Positions 40,752 through 59,075 of a stretch of DNA of 64,000 nucleotides are shown piece by piece. This stretch comes from Candidatus Marinacidobacterales bacterium. Lineage in GTDB: Bacteria > Acidobacteriota > Vicinamibacteria > Marinacidobacterales > SMYC01. Position numbers and translations under genes: made by a program. A model generated the notes under the pieces. The model saw nothing but the letters and a program-made list of their open reading frames with translations, ran no database searches and was not told where the DNA came from. Every line of letters starts with the position of its first letter. The first letter of the stretch is position 1. The stretch spans positions 5,888,001-5,952,000 of the forward strand of contig OZ250169.1 of the NCBI GenBank assembly GCA_965237955.1. Direction: 5' to 3'.

Positions 40752-40814
40752 ACGGCCCCGTCGCCGCGCGCGGTCACGTTATCCTCTCCTTCTTTCTTAC
40801 CCTTGGAGTGTGAC

Positions 40815-41360
40815 ATGTTGATTCAGATCACTGCTCGACACGTCGAGGTGCCTGCGAAACTCAAGTTGTACATCGAGTCCAGGGTGGAGAAACTCGATAA
40901 GTTCATCGACGGTATTACCGACGTTCACGTAACACTCTCAGCCGAGAAGTATCGACAGATCGCGGAGCTGAATGTCCACAGTCGTGGCAACGTTTACCTT
41001 TCGGCGACCGAGGCCTCGGAAGATTTGAAGTCCTCCGTGAGTCAAGCCATCGAGAAGATCGAAGGTCAAGCGAAGAAACATCGTGCGAAGAAGATCGACA
41101 AGAAACGCCGACGGACGAGCCGTGTCGATGGCGAGGGCACCTTCAACGTGATTGCCAGCGAACCCGGGGTGAATGCCGGCGTGACACAGGTGATCGAGAG
41201 TAGGCGGTTCGTGATCAAGCCGCTTACCGTCGAAGAGGCGGTGATGGAGATTGAAGAAGAGCGTGCCGAATTTCTCGTTTTCCGTAATGCGGCGAGCTCT
41301 CGCACCAACGTTCTTTATCGGCGACCGGACGGCAATTTCGGTCTAATCGATCCTGAGTAG
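40815..41360 (+). CDS. hpf: Ribosome hibernation promoting factor (long form)
   Basis: IQITARHVEV N-domain and KPLTVEEA...FLVFRN...VLYRR.DGNFGLI C-domain. Confidence 0.92.
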   Translation: MLIQITARHVEVPAKLKLYIESRVEKLDKFIDGITDVHVTLSAEKYRQIAELNVHSRGNVYLSATEASEDLKSSVSQAIEKIEGQAKKHRAKKIDKKRRRTSRVDGEGTFNVIASEPGVNAGVTQVIESRRFVIKPLTVEEAVMEIEEERAEFLVFRNAASSRTNVLYRRPDGNFGLIDPE

Positions 41361-41377
41361 GCCGGAGTAAGTCCATC

Positions 41378-42256
41378 ATGACGAAACTCGAAGGCGCGCG
41401 ATTCGTCTTCATCACCGGCCTGTCGGGCTCCGGAAAAACCCTTGCGATGAAAGCGTTGGAAGATGCGGTTTTTTTCTGTATCGACAACCTTCCGGTTAAG
41501 CTCATCCTTCCGTTCGGCGAGCTCACCGCGAAGGGTGGTGAAAATATCGACCGTGTTGCCATCGTCACCGATATTCGAGAGCGCCACTTCGTGAAAGAGT
41601 TTCCCGAAGTCCATCAACGGCTTCAGGAACGAGGTTTCTCCACCACCGTCATGTTCCTGTTAGCGCGGAACGACGTCCTGGTGCGTCGTTTCAGCGAAAG
41701 CCGCCGCCCTCACCCGCTGCAAGCCGAAGGCAGCTCGCTCGAAGAAGCGGTGAAGGCGGAGGAGCGGGAGCTCGCGCCGATCCGGAGACTCGCGGACCGC
41801 GTTCTCGACACGTCGGACTTGACGGTGCACGAGCTCCGCCGCCACGTTCTCGAGAGTTTCGTCGAGAGCGAGCGCAGTCACGGGCCAGCGATCCACGTCG
41901 TCTCGTTCGGTTACAAGTTCGGTGTGCCGACCGGCGCTGATCTCGTGTTTGACGTACGTTTCTTGCCCAATCCATACTTCGAAGCTGGTCTGAGGGAGAA
42001 GGACGGCAACGATCCCGAAGTCGAAGCCTTCCTGTTCGCACATGAACAGACTGAGGAGCTTCTCGACCGGCTCGAAGCTTTTCTCGGCTACCTGTTGCCG
42101 CAATACGCGAACGAGGGTAAAAGCAATCTCACGATTGCGATCGGGTGCACCGGCGGCAAACATCGGTCGGTTGCGATGTCCAATCACATCGGGGAGAGGC
42201 TTCGTGCGAACCACGATCGCGTACGCGTGTCCCATCGAGACATGGAGAACGACTGA
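41378..42256 (+). CDS. rapZ: RNase adapter RapZ
   Basis: ITGLSGSGKT, CIDNLP, SFGYKFG, DVRFLPNPY and GCTGGKHRS motifs. Confidence 0.95.
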   Translation: MTKLEGARFVFITGLSGSGKTLAMKALEDAVFFCIDNLPVKLILPFGELTAKGGENIDRVAIVTDIRERHFVKEFPEVHQRLQERGFSTTVMFLLARNDVLVRRFSESRRPHPLQAEGSSLEEAVKAEERELAPIRRLADRVLDTSDLTVHELRRHVLESFVESERSHGPAIHVVSFGYKFGVPTGADLVFDVRFLPNPYFEAGLREKDGNDPEVEAFLFAHEQTEELLDRLEAFLGYLLPQYANEGKSNLTIAIGCTGGKHRSVAMSNHIGERLRANHDRVRVSHRDMEND

Positions 42257-42694
42257 GTGATCGGTATCGTCGTTGTTACCCATGGTCAACTGGCTCGGGA
42301 GCTTGTCGCTGCCGCAGAGATGATCGTAGGAGAGATTCCGAACGTCACCGCTGTCTCCATCGGGTGGCACGAGAGCCCTGACGACGCCCAGCGGGAGATC
42401 GCTGACGCTATCGGCCGGGCGGAGTCGGGTAAAGGCACGGTGGTGCTCACGGATATGTTCGGGGGCACGCCGTCGAACCTGAGCATGACGTTCCTAGAGA
42501 AAGGGCGCGTCGAAGTCGTCACCGGCGTGAATCTTCCGATCTTGATCCGCCTCGCCAGCCTCCGCGAAGAAGAAGAGGGCGACGACCTTCTCGAGCTTGC
42601 CACCGAAGCGGCACGCGAAGGCAAAGACAGCATTTACTTGGCCGGGAATTTGCTCGCTCGCAAGGAGGACACGAAGGAGGACAAAGGTGGTTGA
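42257..42694 (+). CDS. PTS mannose-type EIIA
   Basis: VVVTHG, LTDMFGGTPSN and GVNLP motifs. Confidence 0.92.
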   Translation: MIGIVVVTHGQLARELVAAAEMIVGEIPNVTAVSIGWHESPDDAQREIADAIGRAESGKGTVVLTDMFGGTPSNLSMTFLEKGRVEVVTGVNLPILIRLASLREEEEGDDLLELATEAAREGKDSIYLAGNLLARKEDTKEDKGG

Positions 42695-42962
42695 GGGTCG
42701 TGTCGAGATCAGCAACGTCTTAGGCCTTCACGCCAGAGCGGCTGCTCGGTTCGTTCGTACCGCCACCAAGTACCGCGCCAGCGTCACGGTCTCGAAGGAC
42801 GGTACAACGACGGACGGAAAGAGCATCCTCGGAATCCTGTTTCTCGCCGCCGCAATAGGCAGCGAGATCACTATCGCCGCCGACGGGGAAGACGAGAACG
42901 AGGCACTGAAGGCGCTCGTGGAACTGGTTGCCGACGGGCTGGGTGAAAAGGATCAGGTTTGA
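42687..42962 (+). CDS. ptsH: Phosphocarrier HPr
   Basis: GLHARAAA (His15) and DGKSILG (Ser46). Confidence 0.92.
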   Translation: MVEGRVEISNVLGLHARAAARFVRTATKYRASVTVSKDGTTTDGKSILGILFLAAAIGSEITIAADGEDENEALKALVELVADGLGEKDQV

Positions 42963-44752
42963 GCGTGAGCGTTCCGTCCTCGTCGACCTCGGGCGGCAAA
43001 GGCTCTCCCAAGCCCGGCGTCTTGCATGGGATCGGCGTTGCGCCCGGTGTCGTCATCGCGCGCGCTCTCGTTTTCCAACATCAGGAGATTCCGTTCTTCC
43101 GCGTTCCGTTGCTGCGGCAAGAAGTGAAGCTCGAGGTTGCGCGTGTCGAGCAAGGCAAGGAGTTGACCCGAAAACAGCTCGGCGCTATCAAAGCGCGCAC
43201 CGTCGATGCCCTCGGCGAAGACCACGGTTACATCTTCGATGCCCAGATTTTGATGCTCGAAGACCCGCTCCTCATTGGTCGTATCGAAGAGATCATCCGA
43301 GAGCAACGCGTGAACGCAGAGTGGGCTGTCAAAATCACACTCGAAGAGCTGGCTTCGGTGTTCGATCGGGTTCGCGACGACTACTTTCGCGCGCGGCGCG
43401 GTGACATTTTCGACGTCGCCGATCGACTCGTGCGCAACATCGCAGGTGCGCCTCATCACACGCTAGAGAAATTGGAGAAGGACTACATTCTCCTCGCAGA
43501 AAACGTCCGCCCGTCGGACACCGCTCAGCTCGACTGGGAACACACCGCGGGGCTCGCAATGGAGGTCGGGAGCCGCACCTACCACACCGCTATCATTGCG
43601 CGCTCGCTCGGCATCCCGTGCGTCGTCGGTGTGAGCGACCTGATGCAAAAAGTCGACCACGGCGCGCCACTCGTGCTCGATGGTAGCGAGGGCATCATCG
43701 TTGTCAACCCGGACCGCGCGACCCTCAGGGAGTATCGCGCCAAAAAGAGGCGGCAGAAGGTCCGAGGACAGAAACTCGAACACCTCCGCGAGCTTCCGGC
43801 GGAGACCAAAGACGGTTTTCGTTTACTCGTCCAAGCGAATATCGAGTTCCCCGAAGAGTGCACGACCGCGAAGAAAAGTGGCTCGGAAGGGATCGGCCTG
43901 TTCCGCTCAGAGTGGTTTCTGACGCGGAGCGGAGGCGCATTCCCGAGCGAAGAGGAGCAATACCTCGTGTACCGTAGGATCGCCGAGGAAATGAAGCCGT
44001 GGTCGGTGGTCGTGCGGGCTTTCGACCTCTCCGCCGAACAGTTGGGGGACGATGTCGGCGAGTCGGAATCGAACCCCGCGTTGGGGCTTCGGGCGATTCG
44101 CCTTTTATTGAAACACCGCGACTTGTTCAAAGAGCAGCTCCGTGCCTTGCTGCGGGCGCGCGCGCATGGCAATGTGAAAGTCATGTTCCCGATGATTAGC
44201 GGCGTCGGGGAATTTCGCGACGCGCTCGAGGCCGTCGACGAGGCGAAGCACGAGCTTCGCCGTGATGGGCTCGAGTTCGGCGAAGATCTGCCGTGTGGCA
44301 TCACGCTCGAAGTTCCGTCCGCGGCGGCAACGGCCGACCTCCTCGCGAAGGAGGCCGCGTTTTTCAGTATCGGCACCAACGACCTCATCCAATACCTGAT
44401 TGGCGTGGACAGAGGCAACGACCAGGTGTCGTACTTGTACGAGCCTCTGCACCCGGCCGTGCTCAGAACCCTGCGTTTCGTCATCGACTCGGCGCACCAC
44501 GCGGGCATCAAAGTGGGAATGTGTGGCGAGATGGCGGCGGATCCACTGCTCGTGGCGCTTCTTGTCGGCTTCGGCCTCGATGAGCTATCGATGAACGCGG
44601 TCTCGATCCCAACGGTGAAAAACATCATCCGTCACCTCTCGGCGAGCGAAGCCCGCGCGATCGGTCAACGGGCGCTGGAGCTCGCAACCATCAAGGAAGT
44701 GTCCGCCTTCCTCGGCGAGGAGTTGCGCAAACTGGTGCCCTCTGAGCGATAG
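42959..44752 (+). CDS. ptsI: PTS enzyme I
   Basis: RTYHTAI (phospho-His), GIGLFRSE, NPALGLR, SIGTNDL and CGEMA motifs. Confidence 0.95.
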   Translation: MSVSVPSSSTSGGKGSPKPGVLHGIGVAPGVVIARALVFQHQEIPFFRVPLLRQEVKLEVARVEQGKELTRKQLGAIKARTVDALGEDHGYIFDAQILMLEDPLLIGRIEEIIREQRVNAEWAVKITLEELASVFDRVRDDYFRARRGDIFDVADRLVRNIAGAPHHTLEKLEKDYILLAENVRPSDTAQLDWEHTAGLAMEVGSRTYHTAIIARSLGIPCVVGVSDLMQKVDHGAPLVLDGSEGIIVVNPDRATLREYRAKKRRQKVRGQKLEHLRELPAETKDGFRLLVQANIEFPEECTTAKKSGSEGIGLFRSEWFLTRSGGAFPSEEEQYLVYRRIAEEMKPWSVVVRAFDLSAEQLGDDVGESESNPALGLRAIRLLLKHRDLFKEQLRALLRARAHGNVKVMFPMISGVGEFRDALEAVDEAKHELRRDGLEFGEDLPCGITLEVPSAAATADLLAKEAAFFSIGTNDLIQYLIGVDRGNDQVSYLYEPLHPAVLRTLRFVIDSAHHAGIKVGMCGEMAADPLLVALLVGFGLDELSMNAVSIPTVKNIIRHLSASEARAIGQRALELATIKEVSAFLGEELRKLVPSER

Positions 44753-44798: not shown

Positions 44799-45981
44799 GT
44801 CCCATGGAACAGAAAAAGCTAGACAACACCGGCCCTTCTGTGATCTGCTAAATGCATGAAACACAAGGGCCGGCGAAAAGCCGAATTGAAGCTGTCGTCT
44901 CAAGAAAGCGAAGCGCTGACGCGACTGGCGCGACGCAGCCGTAGTTCGCCGCACCAAGCCTTCCGAGCGAAGATCGTGCTGGATTGCGCGGCGGGTCTGA
45001 CGAATATGGAAGTTGCTAGGAAGATGCACACCATGAGGAGCACGGTGGGCAAGTGGCGAAGACGCTTTGTAGAACAACGAATGGAAGGGTTGTACGACGA
45101 ACCTCGGCCGGGAGCGGCTCGCAAAATCGGCGATGACCAGATCGAGGAAGTCGTGACCAAGACGCTGGAGACGACTCCAAAGGGGAGAACCCATTGGAGT
45201 ACGCGCTCGATGGCCAAGCATCTTGGGCTGAGTCATTCGACGATTGGACGTATTTGGCGAACGTTCGGGCTTCAACCGCACCGCTCGGAATCGTTTCGTC
45301 TCTCGCAAGACCCACAACTGGTCGAAAAAGTACGCGACGTTGTTGGCCTGTATATGAACCCACCGGATAACGCGGTCGTCCTGTGCGTCGACGAGAAATC
45401 GCAGATTCAAGCGCTCGAGCGTGCTCAACCTGTCCTGCCCATGAGCTTGGGCCAGCCCGAGCGACAAACCCACGACTACATTCGGCATGGAACGACTGAC
45501 CTGTTTGCCGCACTCGACGCCGCAACAGGTGAAGTCTTCGGAAAGTGCTACGCGCGACATCGAGCGCTAGAGTTCAAGAAGTTCCTCGCTGAGATCGAAG
45601 CAGCCGTTCCCAGCGAGTTGGACATCCACGTCGTGCTCGACAATCTCGCCACGCACAAGACACCGGCGATCAAACGCTGGCTTTCCAAGCGACCTCGGTT
45701 CCACTTTCACTTCACACCGACACACGCCTCTTGGCTCAACTTCGCTGAGCGCTTCTTTGGCTTGCTCACCGAACACGCCTTGCGACGAGGCTCGCACACG
45801 AGCGTGCCTCAGCTCCGCGTTGCGATACAAGACTATCTCGATGCTCACAACGAGAACCCAAAGCCGTTCAAGTGGACGAAATCCGCCGACCAAATCCTCG
45901 AAACCATCGCTCGGTTCGCCCAGCGAACGCTCGATACACATGGCAAATCGAATTTGGACAGTAATTAAAGATCCAGGGGAC
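44799..45981 (+). mobile_element. IS630-family element, copy 2
   Basis: Same IRs and CTAG flanks as copy 1, and an identical transposase protein. Confidence 0.93.
44856..45968 (+). CDS. IS630 transposase
   Basis: Protein identical to 38087-39199. Confidence 0.95.
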
Positions 45982-45997
45982 TAGGTAACGTACGACG

Positions 45998-46807
45998 ATG
46001 AAATCTATTTTGATAGCGGCTCTACTGCTCGGGGCCGTACCGAAGACTCTCGAGCCGCAGACTCTGGAGCTCGATCGCGACCGGCTCGAGCGCAACGAGG
46101 ACCTTTCCGAATCGCTCGCGAATCAACTGTTGGCGATGTCGGTCGCGGTGCGGCGCCAAGATCTGACCGAGGTCGCATCGAGCTTCCCTGCCACCGACCC
46201 ATTGGAAGCAACTCCGTTTCCGGAGCAGCCCGGACCCGACGCGCTCGTCGTGAAGTGGATCGAGCGCCACGAGTGGAATCTCGATACGGAGGCGAGTACG
46301 ATGCCGGCTTCCGAGCTCTTGAGCAGTCTCGAAGCGTTTCTCGGTCATTTCGAGAGCATCGATGACGTCCGCTTCAAGGTCAAGAACGCCGAGTTCGAGC
46401 CGAAGGAACCAGCCACTGGAAGGGCCAAGATCTTCTTCGTTCTTGTTGGGCGAAATCACGACGGCGAGCGCGAGTGGGTCCGTGGATGGAGCGACGTGCG
46501 TGCCACGCAACGACCCGACGAGACGTGGCGCATCGACTACTGGCGGTGGAGCGAGCTCGACTCGATGATGTCGACGCGCGATCTCTTCTCCGAGATCACC
46601 GAGCCCCTCGGAATGTGGGAAGACGTGCCACGGTTCGGCGATCCTCCGAACGATGGTTTCGTGGCGCATGGGGCCGCTGTTGCCGACGTCGATCTCGATG
46701 GACGGCTCGACGTGTTCACGAGCGGGGTAATGGCAAACCGGTTGTTCCTCAATCGCGGCGGCGGCAAACCGTTCGAAGATGTTTCCGAGGAGACGCTCGT
46801 TTTCTTG
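45998..46807 (+). pseudogene. 5' part of secreted FG-GAP/ASPIC-UnbV/redoxin protein, interrupted by the IS1595 element
   Basis: Signal peptide and first FG-GAP repeat (ADVDLDGRLD). Joins in frame to 54033 across TSD TTTTCTTG: ETLVFL|TRRGTGTIFLDYDNDGD. Confidence 0.9.
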
Positions 46808-46877
46808 GGGAATTATATACTATACTACACGCCAGTCCGCCGGACCTGTGCTACGATTGGTACAGGGTACAGCTTTA

Positions 46878-47180
46878 ATGACGGACGATCAAAAAGGACA
46901 GGAAATCGGGAGCCGCACGATTCGGCTAAGTTCCATACGAAGCGAACTGACTGTCGCTCGCAACGAACGAGATACGGCACTTGGCCGCCTTCGTCGCGCC
47001 GGGGAACAGGCCGACGACTACTTGAAAAGACATGCGAATGATTGCGAATGGCCCACGCCTTCGGAGATTAGATCTCTAATCTCTCGTGTGATCAAGTTGG
47101 ACCAAGAAGCACACAAGATCATTTCCGAACTGCGAGGACTAGGCGCTGACGCCGACCTGTTCAAGATGAATGGCGACTAG
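46878..47180 (+). CDS. Cargo hypothetical helical protein (100 aa)
   Basis: ORF with coiled-coil-like composition just inside the left IR. No family recognised. Confidence 0.55.
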   Translation: MTDDQKGQEIGSRTIRLSSIRSELTVARNERDTALGRLRRAGEQADDYLKRHANDCEWPTPSEIRSLISRVIKLDQEAHKIISELRGLGADADLFKMNGD

Positions 47181-47374
47181 CTTTTCGTCCTAGTCGGCTT
47201 CTTCAAATACCGCCACCCGCCTGGTGGAACCCTCGGACTTGTCAGCACCGCTCTGGCGATATTCTCCGGGGTGTCTGGGATCAGGTCCGGCATCGGCTTC
47301 GCAGGACGGCCACGCCCTCGCTTTGCCTTCGGTTCCTTCTCCTTCGTGGTCGCTCCTTTTTCCACTTCTTTCAT
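47177..47374 (-). CDS. Small basic protein with AT-hook-like motif
   Basis: KRGRGRP followed by IPDTPENIARAVL. Its ATG lies directly after the stop of the upstream gene. Confidence 0.65.
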   Translation of the reverse strand: MKEVEKGATTKEKEPKAKRGRGRPAKPMPDLIPDTPENIARAVLTSPRVPPGGWRYLKKPTRTKS

Positions 47375-47791
47375 GTCATTGAACCAGAAGTGCCCTCGCT
47401 ATACCAATGACAGCTGTCTTTGCTTCCGATTGTGACATCCCAGTTTCTTGCCGCGCAACCAGATAGGCGGACCACCATTCGGAGCACTTCATTGTGTCCA
47501 ACCCAAGAGCCGACACCTGGCTTGTAATCGAGAACAGATTGTTAGAAAGCGCTAAGAGCCCTTCTTCTGACCCGAGCCCGGCCTTTTTCATATCATTCCA
47601 AGAGAAGACCAGCATATCGGATGCCTTCATTGGAGTTCCGATATCGTTGCACATACGTACGAACCGTGGAACTAGAAACTCAAATCGGGTTCGCGTGGTT
47701 ACTGATTCACTTCTTTGCGGTTGCGCAAGTGTCGTCAACATCTCCGGAACGCTTCGCTTTTGGCTTGCATCAGATACAGCTGAAGACCCTA

Positions 47792-48974
47792 GCCCCCTGG
47801 ATCTTTAATTACTGTCCAAATTCGATTTGCCATGTGTATCGAGCGTTCGCTGGGCGAACCGAGCGATGGTTTCGAGGATTTGGTCGGCGGATTTCGTCCA
47901 CTTGAACGGCTTTGGGTTCTCGTTGTGAGCATCGAGATAGTCTTGTATCGCAACGCGGAGCTGAGGCACGCTCGTGTGCGAGCCTCGTCGCAAGGCGTGT
48001 TCGGTGAGCAAGCCAAAGAAGCGCTCAGCGAAGTTGAGCCAAGAGGCGTGTGTCGGTGTGAAGTGAAAGTGGAACCGAGGTCGCTTGGAAAGCCAGCATT
48101 TGATCGCCGGTGTCTTGTGCGTGGCGAGATTGTCGAGCACGACGTGGATGTCCAACTCGCTGGGAACGGCTGCTTCGATCTCAGCGAGGAACTTCTTGAA
48201 CTCTAGCGCTCGATGTCGCGCGTAGCACTTTCCGAAGACTTCACCTGTTGCGGCGTCGAGTGCGGCAAACAGGTCAGTCGTTCCATGCCGAATGTAGTCG
48301 TGGGTTTGTCGCTCGGGCTGGCCCAAGCTCATGGGCAGGACAGGTTGAGCACGCTCGAGCGCTTGAATCTGCGATTTCTCGTCGACGCACAGGACGACCG
48401 CGTTATCCGGTGGGTTCATATACAGGCCAACAACGTCGCGTACTTTTTCGACCAGTTGTGGGTCTTGCGAGAGACGAAACGATTCCGAGCGGTGCGGTTG
48501 AAGCCCGAACGTTCGCCAAATACGTCCAATCGTCGAATGACTCAGCCCAAGATGCTTGGCCATCGAGCGCGTACTCCAATGGGTTCTCCCCTTTGGAGTC
48601 GTCTCCAGCGTCTTGGTCACGACTTCCTCGATCTGGTCATCGCCGATTTTGCGAGCCGCTCCCGGCCGAGGTTCGTCGTACAACCCTTCCATTCGTTGTT
48701 CTACAAAGCGTCTTCGCCACTTGCCCACCGTGCTCCTCATGGTGTGCATCTTCCTAGCAACTTCCATATTCGTCAGACCCGCCGCGCAATCCAGCACGAT
48801 CTTCGCTCGGAAGGCTTGGTGCGGCGAACTACGGCTGCGTCGCGCCAGTCGCGTCAGCGCTTCGCTTTCTTGAGACGACAGCTTCAATTCGGCTTTTCGC
48901 CGGCCCTTGTGTTTCATGCATTTAGCAGATCACAGAAGGGCCGGTGTTGTCTAGCTTTTTCTGTTCCATGGGAC
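47792..48974 (-). mobile_element. IS630-family element, copy 3 (inverted)
   Basis: CTAG flanks at 47789-47792 and 48974-48977. One substitution in an IR and an R-to-C change in the transposase relative to copies 1 and 2. Confidence 0.93.
47805..48917 (-). CDS. IS630 transposase
   Basis: Same protein as copies 1 and 2 except AIKCWL instead of AIKRWL. Confidence 0.95.
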
Positions 48975-49400
48975 TAGTCCAACTGTAACAAGAATCACAA
49001 AAGACAGTATCGGTCGGAACATTGGGATGTTTGGCCTTTCCCCCACCCTGGCGGGCACCATCGATTAGGTGCCGTCGGGCCGGTTGCCAGGACGACCGGC
49101 GTTTGGCATGCGCAGAGTACACGCAACTTGCGCGCGCGTGTCCAGATAATTCTAGGGCATCAGCGGATTTCCAGCAGGACCTGGAAATGCAGTAGAATAG
49201 AGCCTGAAAAAGGAAACGCCCCTCGTTGGACGTCGCATGGTCTTTTCTTCCGTTACTCGTTCTTCAAGAACGGCAGACAAGTAGAGCAATGGCTTTGTTT
49301 CTGGGCTTTCTGCGCATTCCTGAGCCGGTCTAGCACCTTAGAATATTGCGGGGTGTCGTTGTACAACCAGAATCCAAATAGACGTAAGGAGAACAAAATC

Positions 49401-49703
49401 ATGGGTATTTTGAGTCAGTGGTGGATGCTGGCTGAAGCGATTGTGCGCTACGAGCGAGACGACCCTGGCGCTTACGAACTTGGCGATTCGAACAAATACA
49501 CCGTCTATGTTGGAAGCTCTGGTAAGGTTAAGAACCGTTTAGGCGATCACATTGATGCTCCAACGGATAGCTGTATCGGAAGCAAGGCGCGTTACTACCG
49601 CGTCGAGTACTGCTCTAACTACGAGCAGCGGGAGAGGGAGCTATACGATGAGCACGTTAGGTCGTATGGACAACCACCAGAATGCAACGCTGTCAGGCCA
49701 TGA
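49401..49703 (+). CDS. Stand-alone GIY-YIG nuclease-like protein
   Basis: PGAYEL...VYVGSS...NRL.DH...ERE L...P.CN matches the GIY-YIG motif order. RBS AAGGAG precedes ATG 49401. Confidence 0.72.
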   Translation: MGILSQWWMLAEAIVRYERDDPGAYELGDSNKYTVYVGSSGKVKNRLGDHIDAPTDSCIGSKARYYRVEYCSNYEQRERELYDEHVRSYGQPPECNAVRP

Positions 49704-49941
49704 TCGGGTCGTCGGCCTTGCAGACGTCGCGGGCACTCTCGACCGACTCTCGTATCTTCCCCGCATCTTCGCTGCGCCCTACGCCCCGGCCCCAGCCGTC
49801 GTAATAGCCATCCGGCGTGAAATAGTGGTCGAGGTTTGGGTCCTGGATTTGGTTGAGCAAGCTTCCATTGACGCAGATCATATTCCCGCTGAGCGTCAGA
49901 GTCTCGACGCTGCCGTCTTCCCGTAGAACCTTCACCTTCAT
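49693..49941 (-). CDS. Cargo hypothetical protein (82 aa)
   Basis: GGAGG RBS upstream. Lies downstream of the IS1595 transposase in the same orientation. Confidence 0.55.
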   Translation of the reverse strand: MKVKVLREDGSVETLTLSGNMICVNGSLLNQIQDPNLDHYFTPDGYYDGWGRGVGRSEDAGKIRESVESARDVCKADDPIMA

Positions 49942-50348
49942 GGACTGAGCCCTCCGATTTAAGGTACACTTAACCTGAAGGCTCGAGTGGGATAGGTCGG
50001 GAAACTTGGCCCGCGAGCTTTTGCTGCCTACTTCTATTTTGCAGCTACCACTTTAGCTGTGAGATCCTTGTAGCGCAAGCGCTTCCCGTCCATGCCTCGA
50101 ACCATCGCGGCCATCTGGTCGATGGTGTCGGCGGTTCGGACATTGTGGCGGCCGGAGAACTCGTCCACGTAGCGGTGAAGGTGCTTCGGGCTCATTCGGT
50201 GGTAGGTGCCGTAGTAGCCGCGCTTGAGCATGGCCCAAAAGCTCTCGATGCCGTTCGTGTGCGCCATGCCGTTCACGTACTCGCTCACGGAGTGGCGGAC
50301 CGTCTCGTGGTTCGGCAGGCCCGCGTAGCCTGCGTATTCCGGGGCATC

Positions 50349-50490
50349 GTGAACGCAGATTCCAGCCGAAGGTGAACATCCATTCCAAAGCACCGTGAAC
50401 ACGGATTCCGGGGATCGTGAACATCGATTCCGGGGAAGGTGAACACGGATTCCAGGCAACGTGAACGCCGGTTCCGGCATCGCGAACGCT
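50349..50490 (+). repeat. IS21 subterminal repeat array
   Basis: Six GTGAAC-N3-(G/C)(A/G)TTCC-like units at 22-23 nt spacing, as expected for IS21 transposase-binding sites. Confidence 0.85.
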
Positions 50491-50550
50491 CATCGATAGC
50501 ACGTTTCAAGGCAACTCTAGGTCGTACCCGGAAGGAGGACGATCTAGGAA

Positions 50551-52107
50551 ATGGCAGCTAAGAGGTTATCGATGAGAAAAACACGAGAGGTTCTAAGGTT
50601 AAAGTACGAGCTGGGTTTTACTCACCGCATGATCGCAAAGGCACTTCGCGTGGCGGTTGGAACGGTGAGTGAGTACCTGGCCAAGGCGAAGAAGGGTGGT
50701 CTGAGCTGGCCGCTCCCGGAGGAGCTGAGCGACGGGGAGCTGGAGGCAGGGCTGTTTCCGCCGCCGGGCTCGTCTGGCGCACGGCCGGGTCTGGACTATG
50801 CCCACATCCACGAGGAGCTGAGGCGTCACCGAGAGCTGACGTTGCTGCAGCTGTGGGTGGAGTACGCGGAGAATAAGCCGGGAGCGTACGGCTACAGCCG
50901 TTATTGCGAGCTGTACGGTCAGTGGAAGAAGAAGCTGAACCCGACGATGCGTCAACGGCATCGAGCAGGCGAGAAGACATTCGTCGATTTTTCGGGGAAG
51001 AAGCCTCACATCGTCGATCCGAAAACGGGAGAGCTCGTCGAAATGGAGCTGTTCGTCGGGACGTTGGGCGCGAGCAGTTACACCTACGTCGAAGCGACAC
51101 TGAACCAGTCGCTGGAATCGTGGGCGAAGGCCCATAAGGGGATGTCGGATTACTTCGGTGGCAGTACGGAGATCTGGGTTCCGGACAACTTGAAGAGCGG
51201 CGTGGATTTGGTGGACCGTTACGAGCCAGGGATCAACCGGACGTACGAAGAGCTGGCGACGCATTACGGTGCGGTTGTGGTCCCGGCTCGGGTGTTCAAG
51301 CCGAAAGACAAAGCGAAGGTGGAGTCGGCAGTGCAGGTGGCGCAGCGCTGGATCCTGGCGGTGCTTCGTCATCGCACGTTCTTCAGCCTGGCGGAACTGA
51401 ACGAAGCCATCTGGGAGAAGTTAGAGGTCCTGAATGCGCGTCCGATGCAGAAGCTCGGTGTGAGTCGGCGGGAGTTGTACGAAAGGCTAGACCGGCCCGT
51501 ACTGAAACCGCTACCGCAGGAGAGCTACGAGTTATCGACGTGGAAGCGGTGCAGAGTGAACATCGACTACCACGTGGAGGTGGAGAACAACTTGTACAGC
51601 GTTCCCTATCAGCTCATTCACGAGAAAGTCGAGGCACGGGTGACGGCCTCGGTGGTGGAGGTCCTGTTCAAGGGAAAGCGCGTCGCGTCGCATCCCCGCA
51701 AGAAAGGAAAGGGGCACTACTCCACGAACCCGGAGCATATGCCACGTTCGCATCGGGAGCACCTGGAGTGGACGCCGTCGCGGCTGCTCCACTGGGCGGA
51801 GCAGTCAGGTCGCGCCACGGGAAGGCTGGTTGCGGGGATTCTAGAGAGTCGGCCTCACCCGGAGCAGGGATTTCGCTCTTGCCTGGGAGTCATGCGACTA
51901 GGCAGCCGCTGGGGCAGTGAGCGTCTCGAGGCCGCTTGCGCACGAGCGGAAGCTTTGAGCTCTTACAGCTATCGCACGGTGAAAAACATTCTCTCGGCTG
52001 GTCTGGATCGTGTGGTGCTCGAATCGGACGCCGAAGCGAAACCGCGAGAGGAGCACGAGAACATCCGAGGCGCGGATCACTACGAAGGAGGAGAGTCCCG
52101 ATGCTGA
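50551..52107 (+). CDS. istA: IS21 transposase IstA
   Basis: FVDFSG, VPDNLKS, KPKDKAKVE and YSVPY motifs. Confidence 0.95.
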   Translation: MAAKRLSMRKTREVLRLKYELGFTHRMIAKALRVAVGTVSEYLAKAKKGGLSWPLPEELSDGELEAGLFPPPGSSGARPGLDYAHIHEELRRHRELTLLQLWVEYAENKPGAYGYSRYCELYGQWKKKLNPTMRQRHRAGEKTFVDFSGKKPHIVDPKTGELVEMELFVGTLGASSYTYVEATLNQSLESWAKAHKGMSDYFGGSTEIWVPDNLKSGVDLVDRYEPGINRTYEELATHYGAVVVPARVFKPKDKAKVESAVQVAQRWILAVLRHRTFFSLAELNEAIWEKLEVLNARPMQKLGVSRRELYERLDRPVLKPLPQESYELSTWKRCRVNIDYHVEVENNLYSVPYQLIHEKVEARVTASVVEVLFKGKRVASHPRKKGKGHYSTNPEHMPRSHREHLEWTPSRLLHWAEQSGRATGRLVAGILESRPHPEQGFRSCLGVMRLGSRWGSERLEAACARAEALSSYSYRTVKNILSAGLDRVVLESDAEAKPREEHENIRGADHYEGGESRC

Positions 52108-52859
52108 CACCCGAAACGATAGAAAAGATGAACGCCATGAAGTTGTTCGGCTTGGTGTCCGCGTTCGAAACCCAGTTGAGCTCGAGCGAATACAAGGAGC
52201 TGAGCTTCGAGGAACGTGTGGGACTCCTGGTCGATGCCGAGTGGACCGCCCGCGAACAGCGTAAGCTTTCTCGACGACTGCGAGCGGCAAAGCTCCGCTA
52301 TCCGGCATGTTTGGAGAACGTGAACTTCCAAGCGCCTCGAGGCTTAAACCGCGAACAGATCTTGAGCCTGGGCAACTGCCGCTTTGTCGGTGAGCGCCAT
52401 AACCTGCTCATCACCGGCCCGACGGGGATTGGCAAATCGTTCTTGGCTTGCGCCTTCGTGGAGCGGGCCTGTCGTCGCGGCTTCACCGGATGCTACGTGC
52501 GAGCACCGCGCTTGCTCCACGAGCTCGCGGTCGCTCGTGGTGATGGTTCCTACGCCCGGCTTTTGACGAAACTCGCCAAGCTGGACTTACTGGCTATCGA
52601 TGATTGGCTGCTTCACCCGCTGAAAGAATCGGAGAGACGGGATCTAATGGAGGTCATCGAAGACCGCGCCGAGCGTGGCTCCACACTCATCGCGACCCAG
52701 ATTCCGCTCAAGCAGTGGCACGAAGCGATTGGCGACCCAAACCAGGCAGACGCTATCTGCGATCGCATTCTCCACAGCGCGCACCGCATCACTCTCAAAG
52801 GAGCTTCTCTGAGAAAGACCAAGGCTGCGCCAAAGGCATTTGACAACGCCGATGCATGA
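52101..52859 (+). CDS. istB: IS21 helper ATPase IstB
   Basis: GPTGIGKS Walker A, LLAIDDW and ADAICDRI. ATG overlaps the istA stop. Confidence 0.95.
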   Translation: MLTPETIEKMNAMKLFGLVSAFETQLSSSEYKELSFEERVGLLVDAEWTAREQRKLSRRLRAAKLRYPACLENVNFQAPRGLNREQILSLGNCRFVGERHNLLITGPTGIGKSFLACAFVERACRRGFTGCYVRAPRLLHELAVARGDGSYARLLTKLAKLDLLAIDDWLLHPLKESERRDLMEVIEDRAERGSTLIATQIPLKQWHEAIGDPNQADAICDRILHSAHRITLKGASLRKTKAAPKAFDNADA

Positions 52860-53965
52860 GCGAGCGAGGGACCACAGCGTCGATGCGATAAAAACGGGTG
52901 AAACCGCCAAACCCGGGGTACCAGACGATGCGGCGCCAAAACGACGCGCGAGAATGCCTCAGGAAGCGTCTTCTCGAGCCAGGCCATACCCCAGCAACCC
53001 CCCGAAACCAGCCCCACATCGCCCGGGGTTCGGCCGCGGCAGGTCGCTGCCTACGGGAGCGGGAAGGTCGCTTCGCGTCTTTCCTTACGCCCGCTCCCTC
53101 CGGCACCGACCTGCCGCCCCTTGCTACACAACACGCAGGTAAGATAGGTTCACGTTTTCAATCAGTGGAAAGGAGGTCACCCAACACTTCATCGCTTCGA
53201 TGAGCGTTCGGCTTCACCGGATTCGCTGTTCAGCTTGCTCTGGATTCGGCGTTCACGATGGCTGGAATACGCAGCGTAGCCTCGATGATCGTCGGTGTAC
53301 ACCTTTGCGCCAGGTTCGGTGCGCTGCACCACGAAGCCCTTGAGCGTGTCGCCGTCCGTACTCTCGATGACCTCGGCGCTGACGCGGTTCGTCTGGCGGT
53401 CCTTCGCGCCGATGACGGCGGTCTTGCCGACGGTGCCGCGTCCCTTGATGACTTGCTCGCGTTTGTGCGCGTGCATGTTCTTGGCTTTGCCACCGATGAA
53501 GGTTTCGTCTATCTCAACCGGCCCGCTGAACGGAAGCCCATCGCGGCCCCATGACTCGCGGATACGATGCGCCAGGTGCCACGCTGTTTTCTGCGTGACC
53601 TCAATGTCTCGGTGGAGCTTCATGCTGGAGGCTCCTTTCAAGTTGGTCGAGAGAAGGTAGAACGCGATCGCCCACTTCTGCAATCCTAGGTTTGACGCTT
53701 CTATGGGCGTCCCCGTTCTGACGCTGAAGTACTTCCGGCAGGCCCCGCAGTAGTAAGGCATCGGCCTGCGATTCTTTCTCGCTTTGACGCGCTCACTGGT
53801 GTCACAGTACGGGCAGGTTACGCCATTGGGCCAGCGAGTCTCAACGAACCAACGTTCGGCAGCGGCATCGTCGGGAAACATGCGGGTGAGTCCTACGAGC
53901 GAAAGACCTTTGCGGTAGTGTTTGCCAGGTGCTGTGTGCGCCATCCGTGTGCCTCCAATAATGGA

Positions 53966-53994
53966 AGCGTACTACACATAACCTGGCCTGTCAA
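53966..53994 (-). promoter_or_regulatory. Sigma70-type promoter of the IS1595 transposase
   Basis: TTGACA-N17-TACGCT on the minus strand, then GGAGG and ATG at 53944. Confidence 0.6.
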
Positions 53995-54032
53995 GCCTTT
54001 TGTGTAGTATCGTATATAATTCCCTTTTCTTG

Positions 54033-55949
54033 ACCCGGCGGGGAACCGGTACGATTTTTCTCGACTACGACAACGATGGCGATCGGGACATCTTCATGGC
54101 GGCGGTGGGAGAGCAGATACTTCTCCAAAACCAGCTTCGACCGGAAGGCCGCCTGGAGTTTATCGATGTGTCGGCCGAAGTGGGAGTCGACCATCGTGCG
54201 GTCGGGTTCAGCCCGGTCGCTGCGGATGTCAACGGAGACGGCCACACCGATATCTACGTTTGCTCCTACAACCTCTATGGCCAAATCATGCCGAACTCAT
54301 GGAGCCGCGCGACAAACGGCACGCCGAACTTGTTGTTCATCAACCAGGGCGACGGTACGTTTCGTGAGGAAGCGCGGACGTGGGGGGCGGCGGACGCTCG
54401 TTGGAGCTACGCCGGCGCGTTCGCGGACGTCGACGGTGACGGGCGGCAAGATCTCTACGTGGCGAACGATTTCGGCGAGAACGCGCTTTTCATGAACCGG
54501 GTTGACCACTTCGAAGACGAGGCGAGCGCCCGCGGTGTCGTGGATCCCGGCAACGGCATGGGGGTGTCGTTTGGCGACTACGACAACGACGGCGACCTGG
54601 ACTTGCACGTGACCAACATGTCGTCGACGGCCGGAAATCGAATCCTCGCCCGACTCATGCCCGAGGCGAGCGCCGACGACGCGGTGTTGAAAAAGCTCGC
54701 CGCGGGCAATTCGCTCTTCGAGAACAACGGTGACGGGACGTTCCAAAACGTTGCTGAGTCTGCTGGCGGTTTCGGCGCGGGGTGGGCGTACGGCGGCGGG
54801 TTCGTCGATTTCGACAACGATGGATGGGAGGATACCTACTCGGTGAACGGATTCGTTTCCGGCAAGACGATGAAGGACACGTGAAGCCTTTTCTGGCGCC
54901 ACGTCGTGGCGTCCGCGAGCGAGCAGGAGGCGGCCGGCAATCGCTCCTACCAGAACGAGCACATGGCTCAGCTTTTCGACGAAGGCATGTCGTTCAGCGG
55001 GTTCGAGCGCAACAACCTCTACCTCGCTCGCGGAGACGGTACCTACGTGGACATCTCGGGCGTCTCCGGACTGGACTCCATCACCGATGGACGCGGACTG
55101 GCGTTCGGAGATTTGGACAACGACGGCGATCTGGACGTGGTGATAACGCCGGTGCAAGAGGTCGCACGGCTGGTCTATCGCAACAACGTCGGGCAGGACA
55201 ACGCGTTCGTCCGCATGACGGTCAAGGGAACGCAATCGGCGAGTGATGCGTTCGGAACCGTATTGCGTCTGGAGACGGAGTTGGGTACGCAGACGCAGAT
55301 CAAAGCCGGAGGTCGCGGATTTCTGTCCTTCAGCGATCCACGGGTTCTCTTCGGCGTGGGGACCGTGAATGCGGAGCCTTATCGTCTCACCGTGCTTTGG
55401 CCTTCCGGCCTCGAGGAGAGCTACGACGTTCGCGCCGGCGACAGCGTTCTCGTGACCGAGAACGAGGGTATGGAGCGCATCAAAGAGAAACCTTTCGAGC
55501 TTCCCGATCCGGAGACGGCGTCTGAGAGAATTCTTCGCACGTTGAACCTCGAACAAGGCGCGCCCTTTCCCACCCTCGCCGGTGTGGGAGCCATGGGAGA
55601 CTCCGGACGGCGGACGCTTCTGAACATCTGGGCGACGTGGTGCGTGCCTTGCTCGGTAGAGATGCCCGAGCTCGAGCGCGCCTATCCTGCGCTGCAAGCG
55701 GCGGGGATCGATCTCATCGGCCTCAGTGTCGACACCGCGCCGGAAGGCGTGCCCGGCTATCTGGAGGCGAAAGGGATCACGTACCCGAACTTCGTCGTTG
55801 CCGAAGACGATTTCCCCAAGATCTTCAAGGGCGACGCGCTCACGGTTCCGCTCACGGTACTCCTCGACGAAGCGGGTCTCGTGGTAGAAGCGTATTCGGG
55901 CTGGAGTACTGACACCCGCGCCAAGATCGACGCTTTAGCGCAACAATAA
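54033..55949 (+). pseudogene. 3' part of the FG-GAP/ASPIC-UnbV/TlpA-like protein, with an in-frame TGA at 54882-54884
   Basis: Multiple DxDxDG repeats, SFSGFERN, ASPIC-like (VLFGVG..VLWPSG) and WATWCVPC. ORFs 54000-54884 and 54906-55949 share one frame with no other stop between them. Confidence 0.88.
54882..54913 (+). promoter_or_regulatory. Candidate bacterial SECIS element
   Basis: TGA, 10 nt, then stem GGCGCCAC / loop GTC / GTGGCGTC. The loop starts with G after an 18-nt spacer from the TGA. Confidence 0.55.
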
Positions 55950-56716
55950 ATGCTCGGCTCGCGACGCGAGTCGCACCGACTCACGGCCGCTATGTGCAAG
56001 CAGAAGCCTTTGGTCATCGGCCGCAAGCCTTTTGGCAGAATCGCCATCGCCAACTCGGATGCCGGCGCTTCGGCCACTACCAAATAGGCCATCGACCAAG
56101 CATGGCGTGCGGTACGGGAAACGTTGAGCTCCTAGAATCAAGCAGAGCCTGGGCGCGCTAGTTGGTCCCGATGCGATATAGTCTTTTTTTAATGTCGGGC
56201 AAGCAGGTTTTTCTCAGCTATTCCCTCGAGGATATCGAAATGGCTCGGCACGTGGTTCGTGCCATCGAAGCTCGCGGTTGGCCCATTTCCTGGGAGCGGT
56301 ACGACGACCCCGACGCGATTGCAACCCTTGCGCTCCGTGAAGCGCTGACCGCTTCCGATTGCGTCGTCGTGCTGTGGTCGGCGCATTCGGTCGACTCCGA
56401 AGCGATTCGTGAGGAGGCGAGCTCCGCGAGAAGTCGAGGTGCTCTCGTCCAGGGGACGCTCGACGATGCCGCGGTACCCATGCCGTTCGTGCTCGACGAG
56501 CCGACCCCTCTCACCGATGAGTGGAGTGTGACGACGTTGGTGCAGCAGATCGCGCGCGTTCTCCACGACGAGGCCACTACGCTTTCGAGAGAATCGCAGG
56601 AGCGGACGCCGAACGCCGAAGTACGACTCGAAGCGCGTGTGCTCGATATTGCGGAACAGCATGCCGACGCCGGTGAGCTCGACAAAGCCATCACCGCCTA
56701 CGAGCGCTGGATCGAG

Positions 56717-58281
56717 TGTTTCGGTTCAGCTGGAACATGACAGTCCTGAAGTTAAAATACGCACATGGAAAAAGGAGCTGTCATGAGCAAAGGTCGTCGT
56801 CGTCACACTGCGGAGCAAAAGGCAGAGCTGTTGCGCCAGCACGTTGCCGAGAAAAAGCCGGTCTCGGAGGTATGCAACGAGGCAGAAATCCAGCCGAGCC
56901 TGTTCTACACATGGCAAAGGGAGCTATTGGCTGGAGCCCATACGGTGTTTTCGTTCCGTCGTGCGCCGAGCCGTGAGAAGGAGCTAGAGGAGAAGCTCTC
57001 CCGTCTCGAGGCGAAGGTGGCCCGTAAGGATCAGATCATCGCTGAGGTGACCGAAGAGTACGTGACACTCAAAAAAAAACTTGGGGAAGCCTGAGTGGTG
57101 CCTGGATTCCCCATGACCGTCGTGACGAGGTTGTCGACTTCGTGAACACAATCGCCACCAAGACCCAGCTTCCGGTCCAGCAGATCGTTCAGTGGTGCGG
57201 GATCGCTCGGGGCAAGTTCTACGACTGGCGCAAGCGGTACGGGAAGGTGAATGAGCACAACGGCCTGGTGCCGCGGGATCACTGGATCGAAGAATGGGAG
57301 CGCCAGTCCGTGATCGACTACTTCGACTGCCACCCACTGGACGGGTATCGCCGACTCACGTTCATGATGCTGGACGAAGACGTGGTGGCAGTTAGCCCCT
57401 CGACGACGTACCGGGTGTTGTCGAAGGCGGGTCGTCTGGACCGTTGGAACCCGAAGCCGTCGAAGAAGGGAACGGGCTTCGTTCAGCCGCTGCGAGCGCA
57501 CCAGCACTGGCACACGGATATCTCGTACTTGAACCTGGGTGGGACGTTCTACTACCTCTGCTCGTTTCTGGATGGTGCGAGCCGCGCGGTGGTTCACTGG
57601 GAGATTCGTGAGTCGATGACGGAAGCGGATGTGGAGTGCATCTTGGAGCGAGCAAAGGAGCGGTACCCCGATGCGCGGCCTCGAATCATCTCGGACAACG
57701 GTCCGCAGTACATCGCGAAGGACTTCAAGGCATTCATCCGCATCTCAGGGATGACGCACGTGAGGACCGCGCCGTACTACTCGCAATCGAACGGGAAGAT
57801 CGAGCGTTGGCACAAGACGATAAAATCGGACGCCCTGCGTCCTGCCAGCCCCACGAGCCTCGAAGAGGCTCGCCGCTTGATGGAACGATTCGTCGAATAT
57901 TACAACGGGGTTCGCCTGCACAGCGCGATCGGCTACATTGCGCCGCTGGACTTCATGGATGGCAAGGCCACCCAGATCTGGTCGGAGCGAGACCGCAAAC
58001 TCGAGCAGGCTCGGAAGCTGCGGCGTGAGCGCCGTGCGAACAAGGTGCCCGCATGAACACTCTGATCCCAGGAGCCCCACTCCGTTCCCTCTCGCCCACA
58101 AGCATTGAGTACCAGAGAGCGCAGGGGGCGTCAAGGGCGGCGAAGCCGGCGCGCGCAGCGCGCTTTACCCTTGACGCCCCCGAGCACTCTGGTACGATCC
58201 CTGGGGCGATAGGGGACATCCTGCCGCCGGGCGTTGCGTTAACGTCCAACCTCGCTGTCATCTTCACGCTGAACCAATACA
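56717..58281 (+). mobile_element. IS3-family element (1565 bp)
   Basis: IRs TGTTTCGGTTCAGCTGGAACATGACAG / CTGTCATCTTCACGCTGAACCAATACA, 4-bp TSD CGAG, and an orfA/orfB layout. Confidence 0.92.
56783..58056 (+). CDS. IS3 transposase OrfAB (probable programmed -1 frameshift at the A9 run, ~57071-57079)
   Basis: OrfA HTH ends LKKKLGEA. OrfB integrase core has WHTDISY, ISDNG and NGKIERW. Confidence 0.9.
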
Positions 58282-59075
58282 CGAGGAGAAAGCCGATGAC
58301 ATGAAGGCGGTGCGCCGGCTGGGCGATCTCTACCTCGCGTCGGATCGCGATCAAGACGCCGCAGCCCAATACGAGCACGTTGCCGAGCACTACGCAACCG
58401 CCGGGTTTCTCGTGCCCGCGATCGAGACTTACAAGCGCATGGTCGAGCTCACACCTGACAACGAGGCGTTTTCCGCTCGTCTCGCCGCGCTCGTCGAGGA
58501 GAAGGAGCTCCAAACGACGAATACTCAACGGGCGATGTCCTCCGTCCAATTCACTCTCACCGCGCCGCCGTACGTGAGAGCCGGAGAAACCTTCTCCCTC
58601 GACGTGTGGGCGCATCGTGAAGACGACCGCGCCGAGGTAACGAAGCGTCTCGATGAAGGCTACGGGCGCGACAAGTCCGAGGCGGTCGCGGGACCTGCCC
58701 TCACCGCCCGGGTGCACATCGATGGCCTCGACATCAGAAGCTCCGAGATGAGTCTGAGGTGGGACCGGGGCCTCGGGACGGGAACGTTTCAGGTCTCAAC
58801 TACGGCAGCGACCGTTCCCGGAGCACGTACCGGCGTCGTTGGCATCTACTTTCTCGGACTCCAAATCGCGCGGATCCACTTTCTAGTCCCGATCGGGGAT
58901 AGGACCGCTCCTCGCGAAATCATCCCGTCCCGCCAGGACCGCCACACACGTGCCTTGGCCTGTTTCGCCCCCGAGGATCGCGACGCCGTCGAAGCTCGCA
59001 TCCGCTCCTTCGAGCAAGCGGCTCCGGGGGTCGATGTGTCTCTCGACGCCATCGAGCTGCGCGGGAGGGAAAATG

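Follow-up and report, generated by a model that had tools for sequence, protein, structure and literature searches.

We have analysed a 64,000-nt stretch of the genome of Candidatus Marinacidobacterales bacterium (Acidobacteriota; contig OZ250169.1, positions 5,888,001 to 5,952,000; hereafter the window), in which a gene extending from 45998 to 55949 is split by a transposon and, once rebuilt, contains a single in-frame TGA. Conservation of this codon, a hairpin that covaries among homologues and the selenocysteine (Sec) machinery of the host genomes together indicate that the internal UGA is very probably decoded as Sec. The explanation that best accounts for the observations as a whole, and which we hold with reasonable confidence, is that the window carries a broken copy of a gene in which the hairpin would direct Sec insertion at UGA, producing a predicted exported 908-residue propeller protein whose Sec would serve as a redox nucleophile and be reset by the protein's own CxxC motif. 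The chances appear about even that this extends to exported selenoenzymes of several phyla, which would make up one family of extracytoplasmic reductases that carry their own thioredoxin and have a single Sec on a CRTAC1-like propeller as their catalytic centre; Sec would apparently be ancestral, and cysteine usually no substitute for it.

The rebuilt gene and its in-frame TGA

Excision of an insertion sequence (IS) of the IS1595 family at 46808-54024 brings the arms 45998-46807 and 54033-55949 together in frame as 908 codons, in agreement with the initial annotation of the window, which had proposed one frame of ~908 codons after removal of an IS1595 element and had named the TGA at 54882-54884 as its only internal stop. 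This TGA is the sole internal stop of the rebuilt frame, occupying codon 554 in the context GKTMKDT*SLFWRHVV. The intact homologue L050 aligns with the rebuilt protein from end to end, its residues 23-274 corresponding to the left arm (62% identity) and residues 275-918 to the right arm (75%). The features of the gene are as follows.

45998..46807 (+): 5' arm, 270 codons; hydrophobic signal-like N-terminus (~residues 1-20), NTF2/SnoaL-like domain (~46061-46582) and first FG-GAP repeat
54033..55949 (+): 3' arm; FG-GAP repeats 2-7, helical insertions, UnbV_ASPIC (~55248-55424) and redoxin domain (~55605-55928)
54882..54884 (+): TGA in frame, codon 554, predicted to specify selenocysteine; lies between FG-GAP repeats 6 and 7, at the start of a predicted helix
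54895..54913 (+): hairpin resembling a bacterial selenocysteine insertion sequence (SECIS); core 54897-54901 / 54907-54911, invariant G at 54903
55629..55652 (+): WATWCVPC motif of the TlpA/ResA-like domain; Cys807 at 55641, Cys810 at 55650

Conservation of the TGA codon

A 230-residue region around the TGA was compared with 401 sampled genomes of the phylum. Matches were obtained in 88 genomes, 60 of which, the host included, contain a TGA-bearing match while 28 have stop-free matches only. Among the 46 best matches, 45 possess one TGA at the same codon, and the lone exception has TCC at the site and has lost the redoxin domain. Across homologues down to ~33% identity, 119 of 134 non-redundant loci have TGA as the codon at the DT*SLFWR column; five further loci, stop-free and not picked up by the motif, joined the set after this count, and nine loci with one TGA in which the motif was unmatched (L190-L198) were excluded from all counts. 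The column is also shared by paralogous clades with TPR tails at 33-46% identity. In a second sample, 49 of 168 genomes contained matches; TGA was present in 51 of 61 places among the matches listed, and could be put at the same column in 21 of 30 fetched loci, nine being unplaced. In a 151-genome sample of the order, each of the 11 matches had one TGA. The nearest named loci carry Acidobacteriota and Ca. Marinacidobacterales labels at 84-87% identity, and TGA-bearing members also occur in records labelled Planctomycetota, Gemmatimonadota and Latescibacterota.

None of the 155 loci has TGG at the site, and TAA and TAG were never seen there; by contrast, 117 complete family genes have true ends of TAG in 59, TGA in 30 and TAA in 28. 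Homologues ending in TAA or TAG, or shifting frame, at this position were not encountered, except for L187 (G554:C9), in which the TGA and hairpin are intact and a frameshift lies just upstream, reflecting a pseudogene or an assembly error. In protein databases, 91 matches terminate at the TGA site, and the family is routinely split into two genes. Nor is the TGA private to one assembly: contigs from run X1, which may be the source sample of the assembly, span unchanged the left insertion junction and, with 0 differences over 54575-55014, the TGA, the codon is likewise unchanged in contigs from runs X2 and X5, and no alternative letter is listed at 54882-54884.

Two other TGA codons were noted in the host genome (G000). 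The FG-GAP gene L013 (~5162240) has an apparent nonsense TGA at a different place without such a hairpin. At 1577016 (+) of G000:C1 a TGA lies between frames of 403 and 419 codons, in the context VAKKP*MDKLR and with a 7-bp hairpin, consistent with either two genes or another recoding site.

The hairpin downstream of the TGA

The hairpin has the geometry originally described, an 8-bp stem, an 18-nt spacer and a loop that begins with G, which is also the geometry found in the host's own FdhA-like gene with a UHGP site. Its evidential value lies above chance because of conservation and covariation across loci. The conserved core comprises 5 bp (54897-54901 / 54907-54911), while only 55 of 119 loci can form the 54902:54906 pair. 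All five core pairs are present in 98 of 119 TGA loci as opposed to 1 of 15 non-TGA loci with similar peptide, and G is found at 54903 in every one of the 119 TGA loci. In the in-register set, comprising the 122 of 134 TGA loci that align to the window with no gap, the Arg codon pairs through its third base with the first base of codon +9 without exception (122/122), as C:G in 72, U:A in 39, G:U in 9, A:U in 1 and G:C in 1, and the compensating change at codon +9 alters the amino acid (Ala, Thr, Ser or Pro). The third base of codon +8 is G in 117/117 (0 bits), compared with 1.27-1.9 bits at 15 upstream four-fold sites. In an alignment of 80 rows the covariation score is 0.216 vs 0.104 for shuffled alignments (0/500 shuffles) and exceeds all slid controls; ViennaRNA alifold on 94 in-register rows returned the hairpin.

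The bacterial SECIS consensus model specifies a loop of 3-9 nt, a stem of 4-16 bp, G in the first two loop places and a spacing of 16-37 nt (section 5 of PMC13188914). Family hairpins fit within these limits, with loops of 3-5 nt, stems of 5-8 bp and spacings of 17-18 nt. A folding energy of -7.5 kcal/mol or below is attained by 95/95 TGA windows, yet also by 13/15 non-TGA windows. In metagenome contigs, 54860-54914 is conspicuous as a small segment common at the DNA level to other organisms.

Selenocysteine machinery

All components expected for Sec insertion are present in the host genome, with SelA, SelB and SelD above curated cut-offs together with tRNA-Sec. Sec machinery is shown by all 60 TGA-bearing phylum genomes: selA was detected in 56, and the other four have selB and tRNA-Sec. 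Five of five named genomes outside the sample also have selA. Conversely, four genomes of one genus without selA and selB contain stop-free relatives only. In these counts G049 and G152 enter only the machinery and TGA tallies, one per group, and G024 only the selA total. In one genus selA lies close to the family gene, directly downstream in G021 (L199:7940-9340) and two genes on in G175 (L200:10340-11767). ARAGORN reported two unusual tRNAs in G000:C1, one with an undetermined anticodon at 7889963-7890053 (-) and a tRNA-Cys(ACA) at 1295353-1295426 (-).

Association of Sec with the C-terminal CxxC

Presence of TGA corresponds closely with presence of the redoxin motif, a downstream W..CxxC being found in 126 of 130 complete TGA loci vs 3 of 20 non-TGA loci. 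In a quick tree of 107 rows, obtained by thinning 171 rows at 82% identity, CxxC accompanies 63 of 66 Sec rows vs 8 of 41 others. Sec rows are spread over this tree, in which 13 changes are needed and 9 are forced by strong branches. Separate Sec losses go with loss of the redoxin domain, as in P0015 and P0017 beside L134 and in L120 beside the clade of the window gene. Thus, Sec and CxxC were mostly lost together, on several separate branches. This repeated joint loss supports the earlier suggestion that the C-terminal CxxC may recycle Sec. The initial annotation had missed that Sec-less relatives mostly do not use cysteine: the residue at the site is more often R, S, E, D, A or another, cysteine being confined to L161 and L162 (TGT/TGC) and to the protein rows P0007, P0015 and P0017.

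Protein architecture

Pfam detects FG-GAP repeats (PF13517, E 1e-36), UnbV_ASPIC (PF07593, E 4e-10) and a redoxin domain in the rebuilt protein, and no NHL repeats. AlphaFold2 was applied to L050 minus its signal peptide, with Sec entered as Cys and an alignment of 120 rows, giving a model with a predicted local distance difference test score of 95.3 and a predicted template modelling (TM) score of 0.93. The model consists, in order, of an NTF2-like domain, which the initial domain list had overlooked, a seven-repeat FG-GAP propeller, UnbV and a TlpA/ResA-like CxxC domain. Sec536 (model numbering) opens the helix 536-547 in an insertion between propeller repeats 6 and 7. The propeller and UnbV superimpose on murine CRTAC1 (PDB 9etn) with Z 39.7 and a root-mean-square deviation of 2.4 over 449 residues at 24% identity, and the CRTAC1 match is also recovered by Foldseek (E 4e-30) and by hidden Markov model comparison (E 5e-52). 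Folded alone, the N-terminal domain is weakly NTF2/SnoaL-like (best E 5e-5, TM ~0.5), and only nameless clusters were returned for it from the ESM Atlas. The redoxin domain, with its WxxWCxxC motif, has ResA (E 3e-24) and TlpA (E 9e-22) as its best PDB matches and falls under the NCBIfam cut-offs, at 56.8 bits vs 170 for ResA and 54 vs 230 for TlpA.

A simple hydropathy scan of 106 full-length members found a hydrophobic N-terminal stretch in 105 and an internal membrane-like segment in none. In 62 of the 106, the only cysteines of the mature part are those of CxxC. As initially stated, Sec lies outside any UxxC motif, with no UxxC/CxxU or metal-binding motif at the site. Its flanks, D-x-U-S-x-F-W-R, are strongly conserved, as are seven DxDxDG loop motifs, which suggest calcium binding. 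Polar residues of the propeller are also conserved (R375, W376, N397, D398, R455, D534, S572, D604 and R606, model numbering), equally so in Sec-less rows. A likeness of U-S-x-F-W to the GCFW motif of MsrA was considered and dropped, as the spacing differs. Redoxin-less database proteins end at 750-815 residues, just after UnbV; some database proteins lie on short contigs. Some clades carry TPRs.

Proposed mechanism and alternative explanations

The proposed mechanism starts from the conserved UGA, the covarying hairpin and the Sec machinery of the hosts. By analogy with established SelB/SECIS biology, SelB would bind the hairpin and Sec would be inserted. The signal peptide would then export the protein, which is predicted to fold as NTF2-like domain, seven-repeat FG-GAP propeller, UnbV and TlpA-like domain, and to have an inserted cap in which Sec begins a helix. 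There, Sec may reduce an oxidised extracytoplasmic substrate bound by the propeller or by the NTF2-like pocket, itself becoming oxidised; a peroxide, sulfoxide or halamine type of compound is our tentative candidate. Oxidised Sec would in turn be reduced by the fused CxxC, with electrons from DsbD, a DsbD-type protein (PF02683) being encoded in the host genome. Such a Sec-CxxC relay is, in our judgement, somewhat probable.

Several observations limit or weigh against this interpretation. A hairpin taken alone carries no weight: chance often produces one, as 189 TGA sites that separate long frames in the host genome have a hairpin of like geometry, and single-sequence folding gives no signal (z-score -0.09). 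Of the pairs in the 80-row alignment, no more than two show variation at both positions, and such counts are inflated by relatedness. The covarying pair represents few events among related genomes; RNAalifold found no consensus pairs in the 80-row alignment. Co-occurrence with selA is a test of limited power because 300 of the 401 phylum genomes have selA. Coupling of Sec to CxxC is broken in both directions, the close relatives P0004-P0006 having kept CxxC with V, L or S at the site and L163, L166 and L189 having TGA without CxxC. The usual pairing of Sec with Cys homologues is weak, because among the 41 Sec-less rows only 5 have cysteine. When the neighbourhoods of 99 TGA loci were clustered, no shared operon emerged that might point to a substrate.

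Among explanations of the TGA itself, the probability is negligible that it arose by an assembly error or by a nonsense mutation peculiar to this genome, on the view that the genome is decaying and rich in IS: although it contains ~80 copies of two IS types and the FG-GAP gene L013 has a nonsense TGA elsewhere, the same codon is TGA in more than 100 other genomes and in contigs from independent runs, and the explanation is refuted by conservation. Two other possibilities are likewise very unlikely: a genuine stop at the TGA that separates two cooperating genes, and readthrough that inserts Trp or Cys independently of the Sec pathway. The halves are indeed stored as separate database proteins ending at the site, and an in-frame GTG lies +7 or +8 codons away in 115 of 122 loci. 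However, this GTG, at 54906 in the window, sits within the hairpin with no Shine-Dalgarno-like word upstream, as the initial annotation had remarked; protein-level conservation extends over the six or seven codons that separate it from the TGA; and TAA and TAG, which account for 87 of 117 real ends, never appear at the site. With the Sec site between repeats 6 and 7, a true stop would therefore leave an unfinished propeller. Readthrough as Trp is opposed by the lack of TGG in the 155 loci, and readthrough without the Sec pathway by the finding that no TGA versions were seen in genomes without Sec machinery.

Two further explanations accept Sec and differ in its role. Sec might be inserted with a side chain that matters little, the UGA and hairpin tying production of the full propeller and redoxin tail to selenium supply. 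The many residues tolerated at the site in stop-free relatives, with Cys in so few, and the retention of CxxC without Sec or Cys in P0004-P0006 agree with such gating, but strong conservation of the D-x-U-S-x-F-W-R flanks and joint loss of Sec and CxxC on several branches, which a purely regulatory codon would not require, make it improbable. Alternatively, Sec could be inserted and essential in another capacity: it could coordinate a soft metal or a metalloid, or form a covalent bond as the nucleophile of a transfer or cleavage reaction, while CxxC would serve only to keep Sec reduced outside the cytoplasm. This would likewise explain joint loss of Sec and CxxC and would fit the absence of a resolving Cys near Sec, and binding of a small ligand is suggested by the NTF2-like pocket together with the propeller's conserved polar residues. 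We nevertheless consider a ligand or transfer role unlikely: those polar residues are equally conserved in Sec-less rows, and no metal-resistance or pathway genes recur near the TGA loci.

Relation to known systems

Decoding would follow a known mechanism. As in SelB/SECIS genes of the formate dehydrogenase type (passages of PMC13188914), there is an in-frame UGA, a hairpin within the open reading frame (ORF), a loop 17-18 nt after the UGA, G in the first two loop bases and a host with selA, selB, selC and selD. Unlike those genes, the family is not among the 119 listed, has no UxxC/CxxU or metal-binding motif and has Sec-less relatives mostly without Cys. The FG-GAP propeller followed by an UnbV_ASPIC domain is shared with CRTAC1/ASPIC-UnbV proteins, whereas the additional NTF2-like N-terminal domain, the Sec-bearing helical cap, the C-terminal redoxin and, in some clades, the TPRs are not. 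TlpA/ResA/DsbE proteins have the same WxxWCxxC redoxin domain, which here is instead fused as a C-terminal domain and scores below every NCBIfam cut-off. In known ResA-like selenoproteins (WAxxUGC), Sec is located in the thioredoxin motif, whereas here it lies ~250 residues upstream. A thioredoxin-like domain and a propeller also occur in one chain in SOQ1 and NHLRC2, with their redox motif at the interface, and the thioredoxin domain of SOQ1 feeds another redox site, one that acts as a methionine sulfoxide reductase (10.1101/2021.03.16.435614, 10.1101/2024.11.01.621559 and PMC6107167). Those proteins differ in having an NHL rather than an FG-GAP propeller, another domain order and no Sec; SOQ1 may offer a functional analogy for the working of Sec with CxxC, not kinship.

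The initial annotation did not recognise a classical selenoprotein family here, which agrees with Table 1 of the 2026 catalogue (PMC13188914), in whose 119 families no FG-GAP, CRTAC1, UnbV or propeller family is included. The family is not named in passages of deep-Sep (PMC12013277) or of BSepDB (PMC13326102), and a passage of PMC3174227 merely lists an ASPIC/UnbV paralog. No report of the family was found in the open literature searched, though a prior mention elsewhere, or a database record already bearing U, is possible, and the same literature yielded no Sec or enzyme activity for the CRTAC1/ASPIC-UnbV family. No NCBIfam 20.0 model covers the Sec region in the seven proteins scanned. The TGA is very probably a Sec codon of an uncatalogued and widespread family, its decoding following a known mechanism in a new structural setting. 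A TGA-bearing member is present in 60 of the 401 phylum genomes, yet the family is split in databases and missing from the 2026 catalogue. Sec would be placed on a beta-propeller outside any known motif, against the working rule by which Cys homologues of a selenoprotein are plentiful, and one residue and one CxxC would provide a direct handle on the function of bacterial CRTAC1/ASPIC-UnbV proteins. If the interpretation is correct, it would supply the first enzyme function for the CRTAC1/ASPIC-UnbV fold and add one of the commoner selenoproteins of Acidobacteriota, and Cys-guided searches would have missed the family because Cys usually cannot replace Sec.

The nested insertion and the empty-site allele

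The window copy is cut at codon 270 and is unable to make the protein. Its disruption by a transposon, as originally proposed, is borne out by terminal inverted repeats, a target duplication and an empty-site allele. The proposal of a plain IS1595 element was correct as to family, but the structure is more complex, with IS630, IS21 and cargo ORFs nested inside.

46800..46807 (+): target duplication, left copy TTTTCTTG, 8 bp
54025..54032 (+): target duplication, right copy TTTTCTTG, 8 bp
46808..54024 (no strand assigned): IS1595-family element, 7.2 kb; 23-nt terminal inverted repeats, cargo ORFs; single copy in the genome; splits the gene
~47788..48980 (-): IS630-family element inside the IS1595 element; 41 near-full copies in the genome
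50343..53271 (+): IS21-family element (istA, istB); divides the IS1595 transposase; 38 near-full copies in the genome
44796..45985 (+): second IS630 copy; ends 12 nt before the start codon; outside the aligned stretch of the X6 allele

Members of the IS1595 family have a Zn-ribbon plus ISXO2-like DDE transposase, terminal inverted repeats and an 8-bp duplication. All of these are found here, both transposase halves of the 46808-54024 insertion matching IS1595 Pfam models. The insertion thus represents three-level nesting, a single-copy IS1595 element with cargo that contains IS630 and IS21, in a genome rich in IS (~80 copies of these two types). Distant relatives of the IS1595 element with similar ends occur near 1023418, 2525674 and 7073990 of the host genome. 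The cargo ORF at 49401-49703 (+) matches DUF7508 (E 4e-7) and, weakly, GIY-YIG (E 0.003); those at 47376-47741 (-), 46779-47180 and 49693-49941 (-) have no Pfam match in the frames scanned.

A near-identical strain carries the uninterrupted gene with an empty insertion site, contig 25 of run X6 joining 45981-46799 directly to 54025-54600 with 10 differences in ~1400 nt. RNA runs X18 and X19 gave short contigs only.

Gene neighbourhood

Neighbours among the 99 TGA loci include an FG-GAP/TPR family in 24. A vanadium-haloperoxidase-like gene (DUF6851, VCPO_2nd) directly adjoins the family gene in 10 Pyrinomonadaceae-type loci (for example L116:6831-8420), a possible hint at halogen-oxidant chemistry. 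In six close kin, a gene for enzyme I of the phosphotransferase system (PTS) lies upstream of the selenoprotein gene; in the window, ORF sequences at 39222-44752 (+) form a cluster of rpoN, hpf, rapZ, PTS EIIA, HPr and enzyme I. Downstream of the gene, 56162-56740 (+) encodes a TIR-domain protein (PF13676, E 5e-11). What appears to be an IS3-type element comes next (56765-58056), and then a TPR-like remainder at 58301, an arrangement that looks interrupted.

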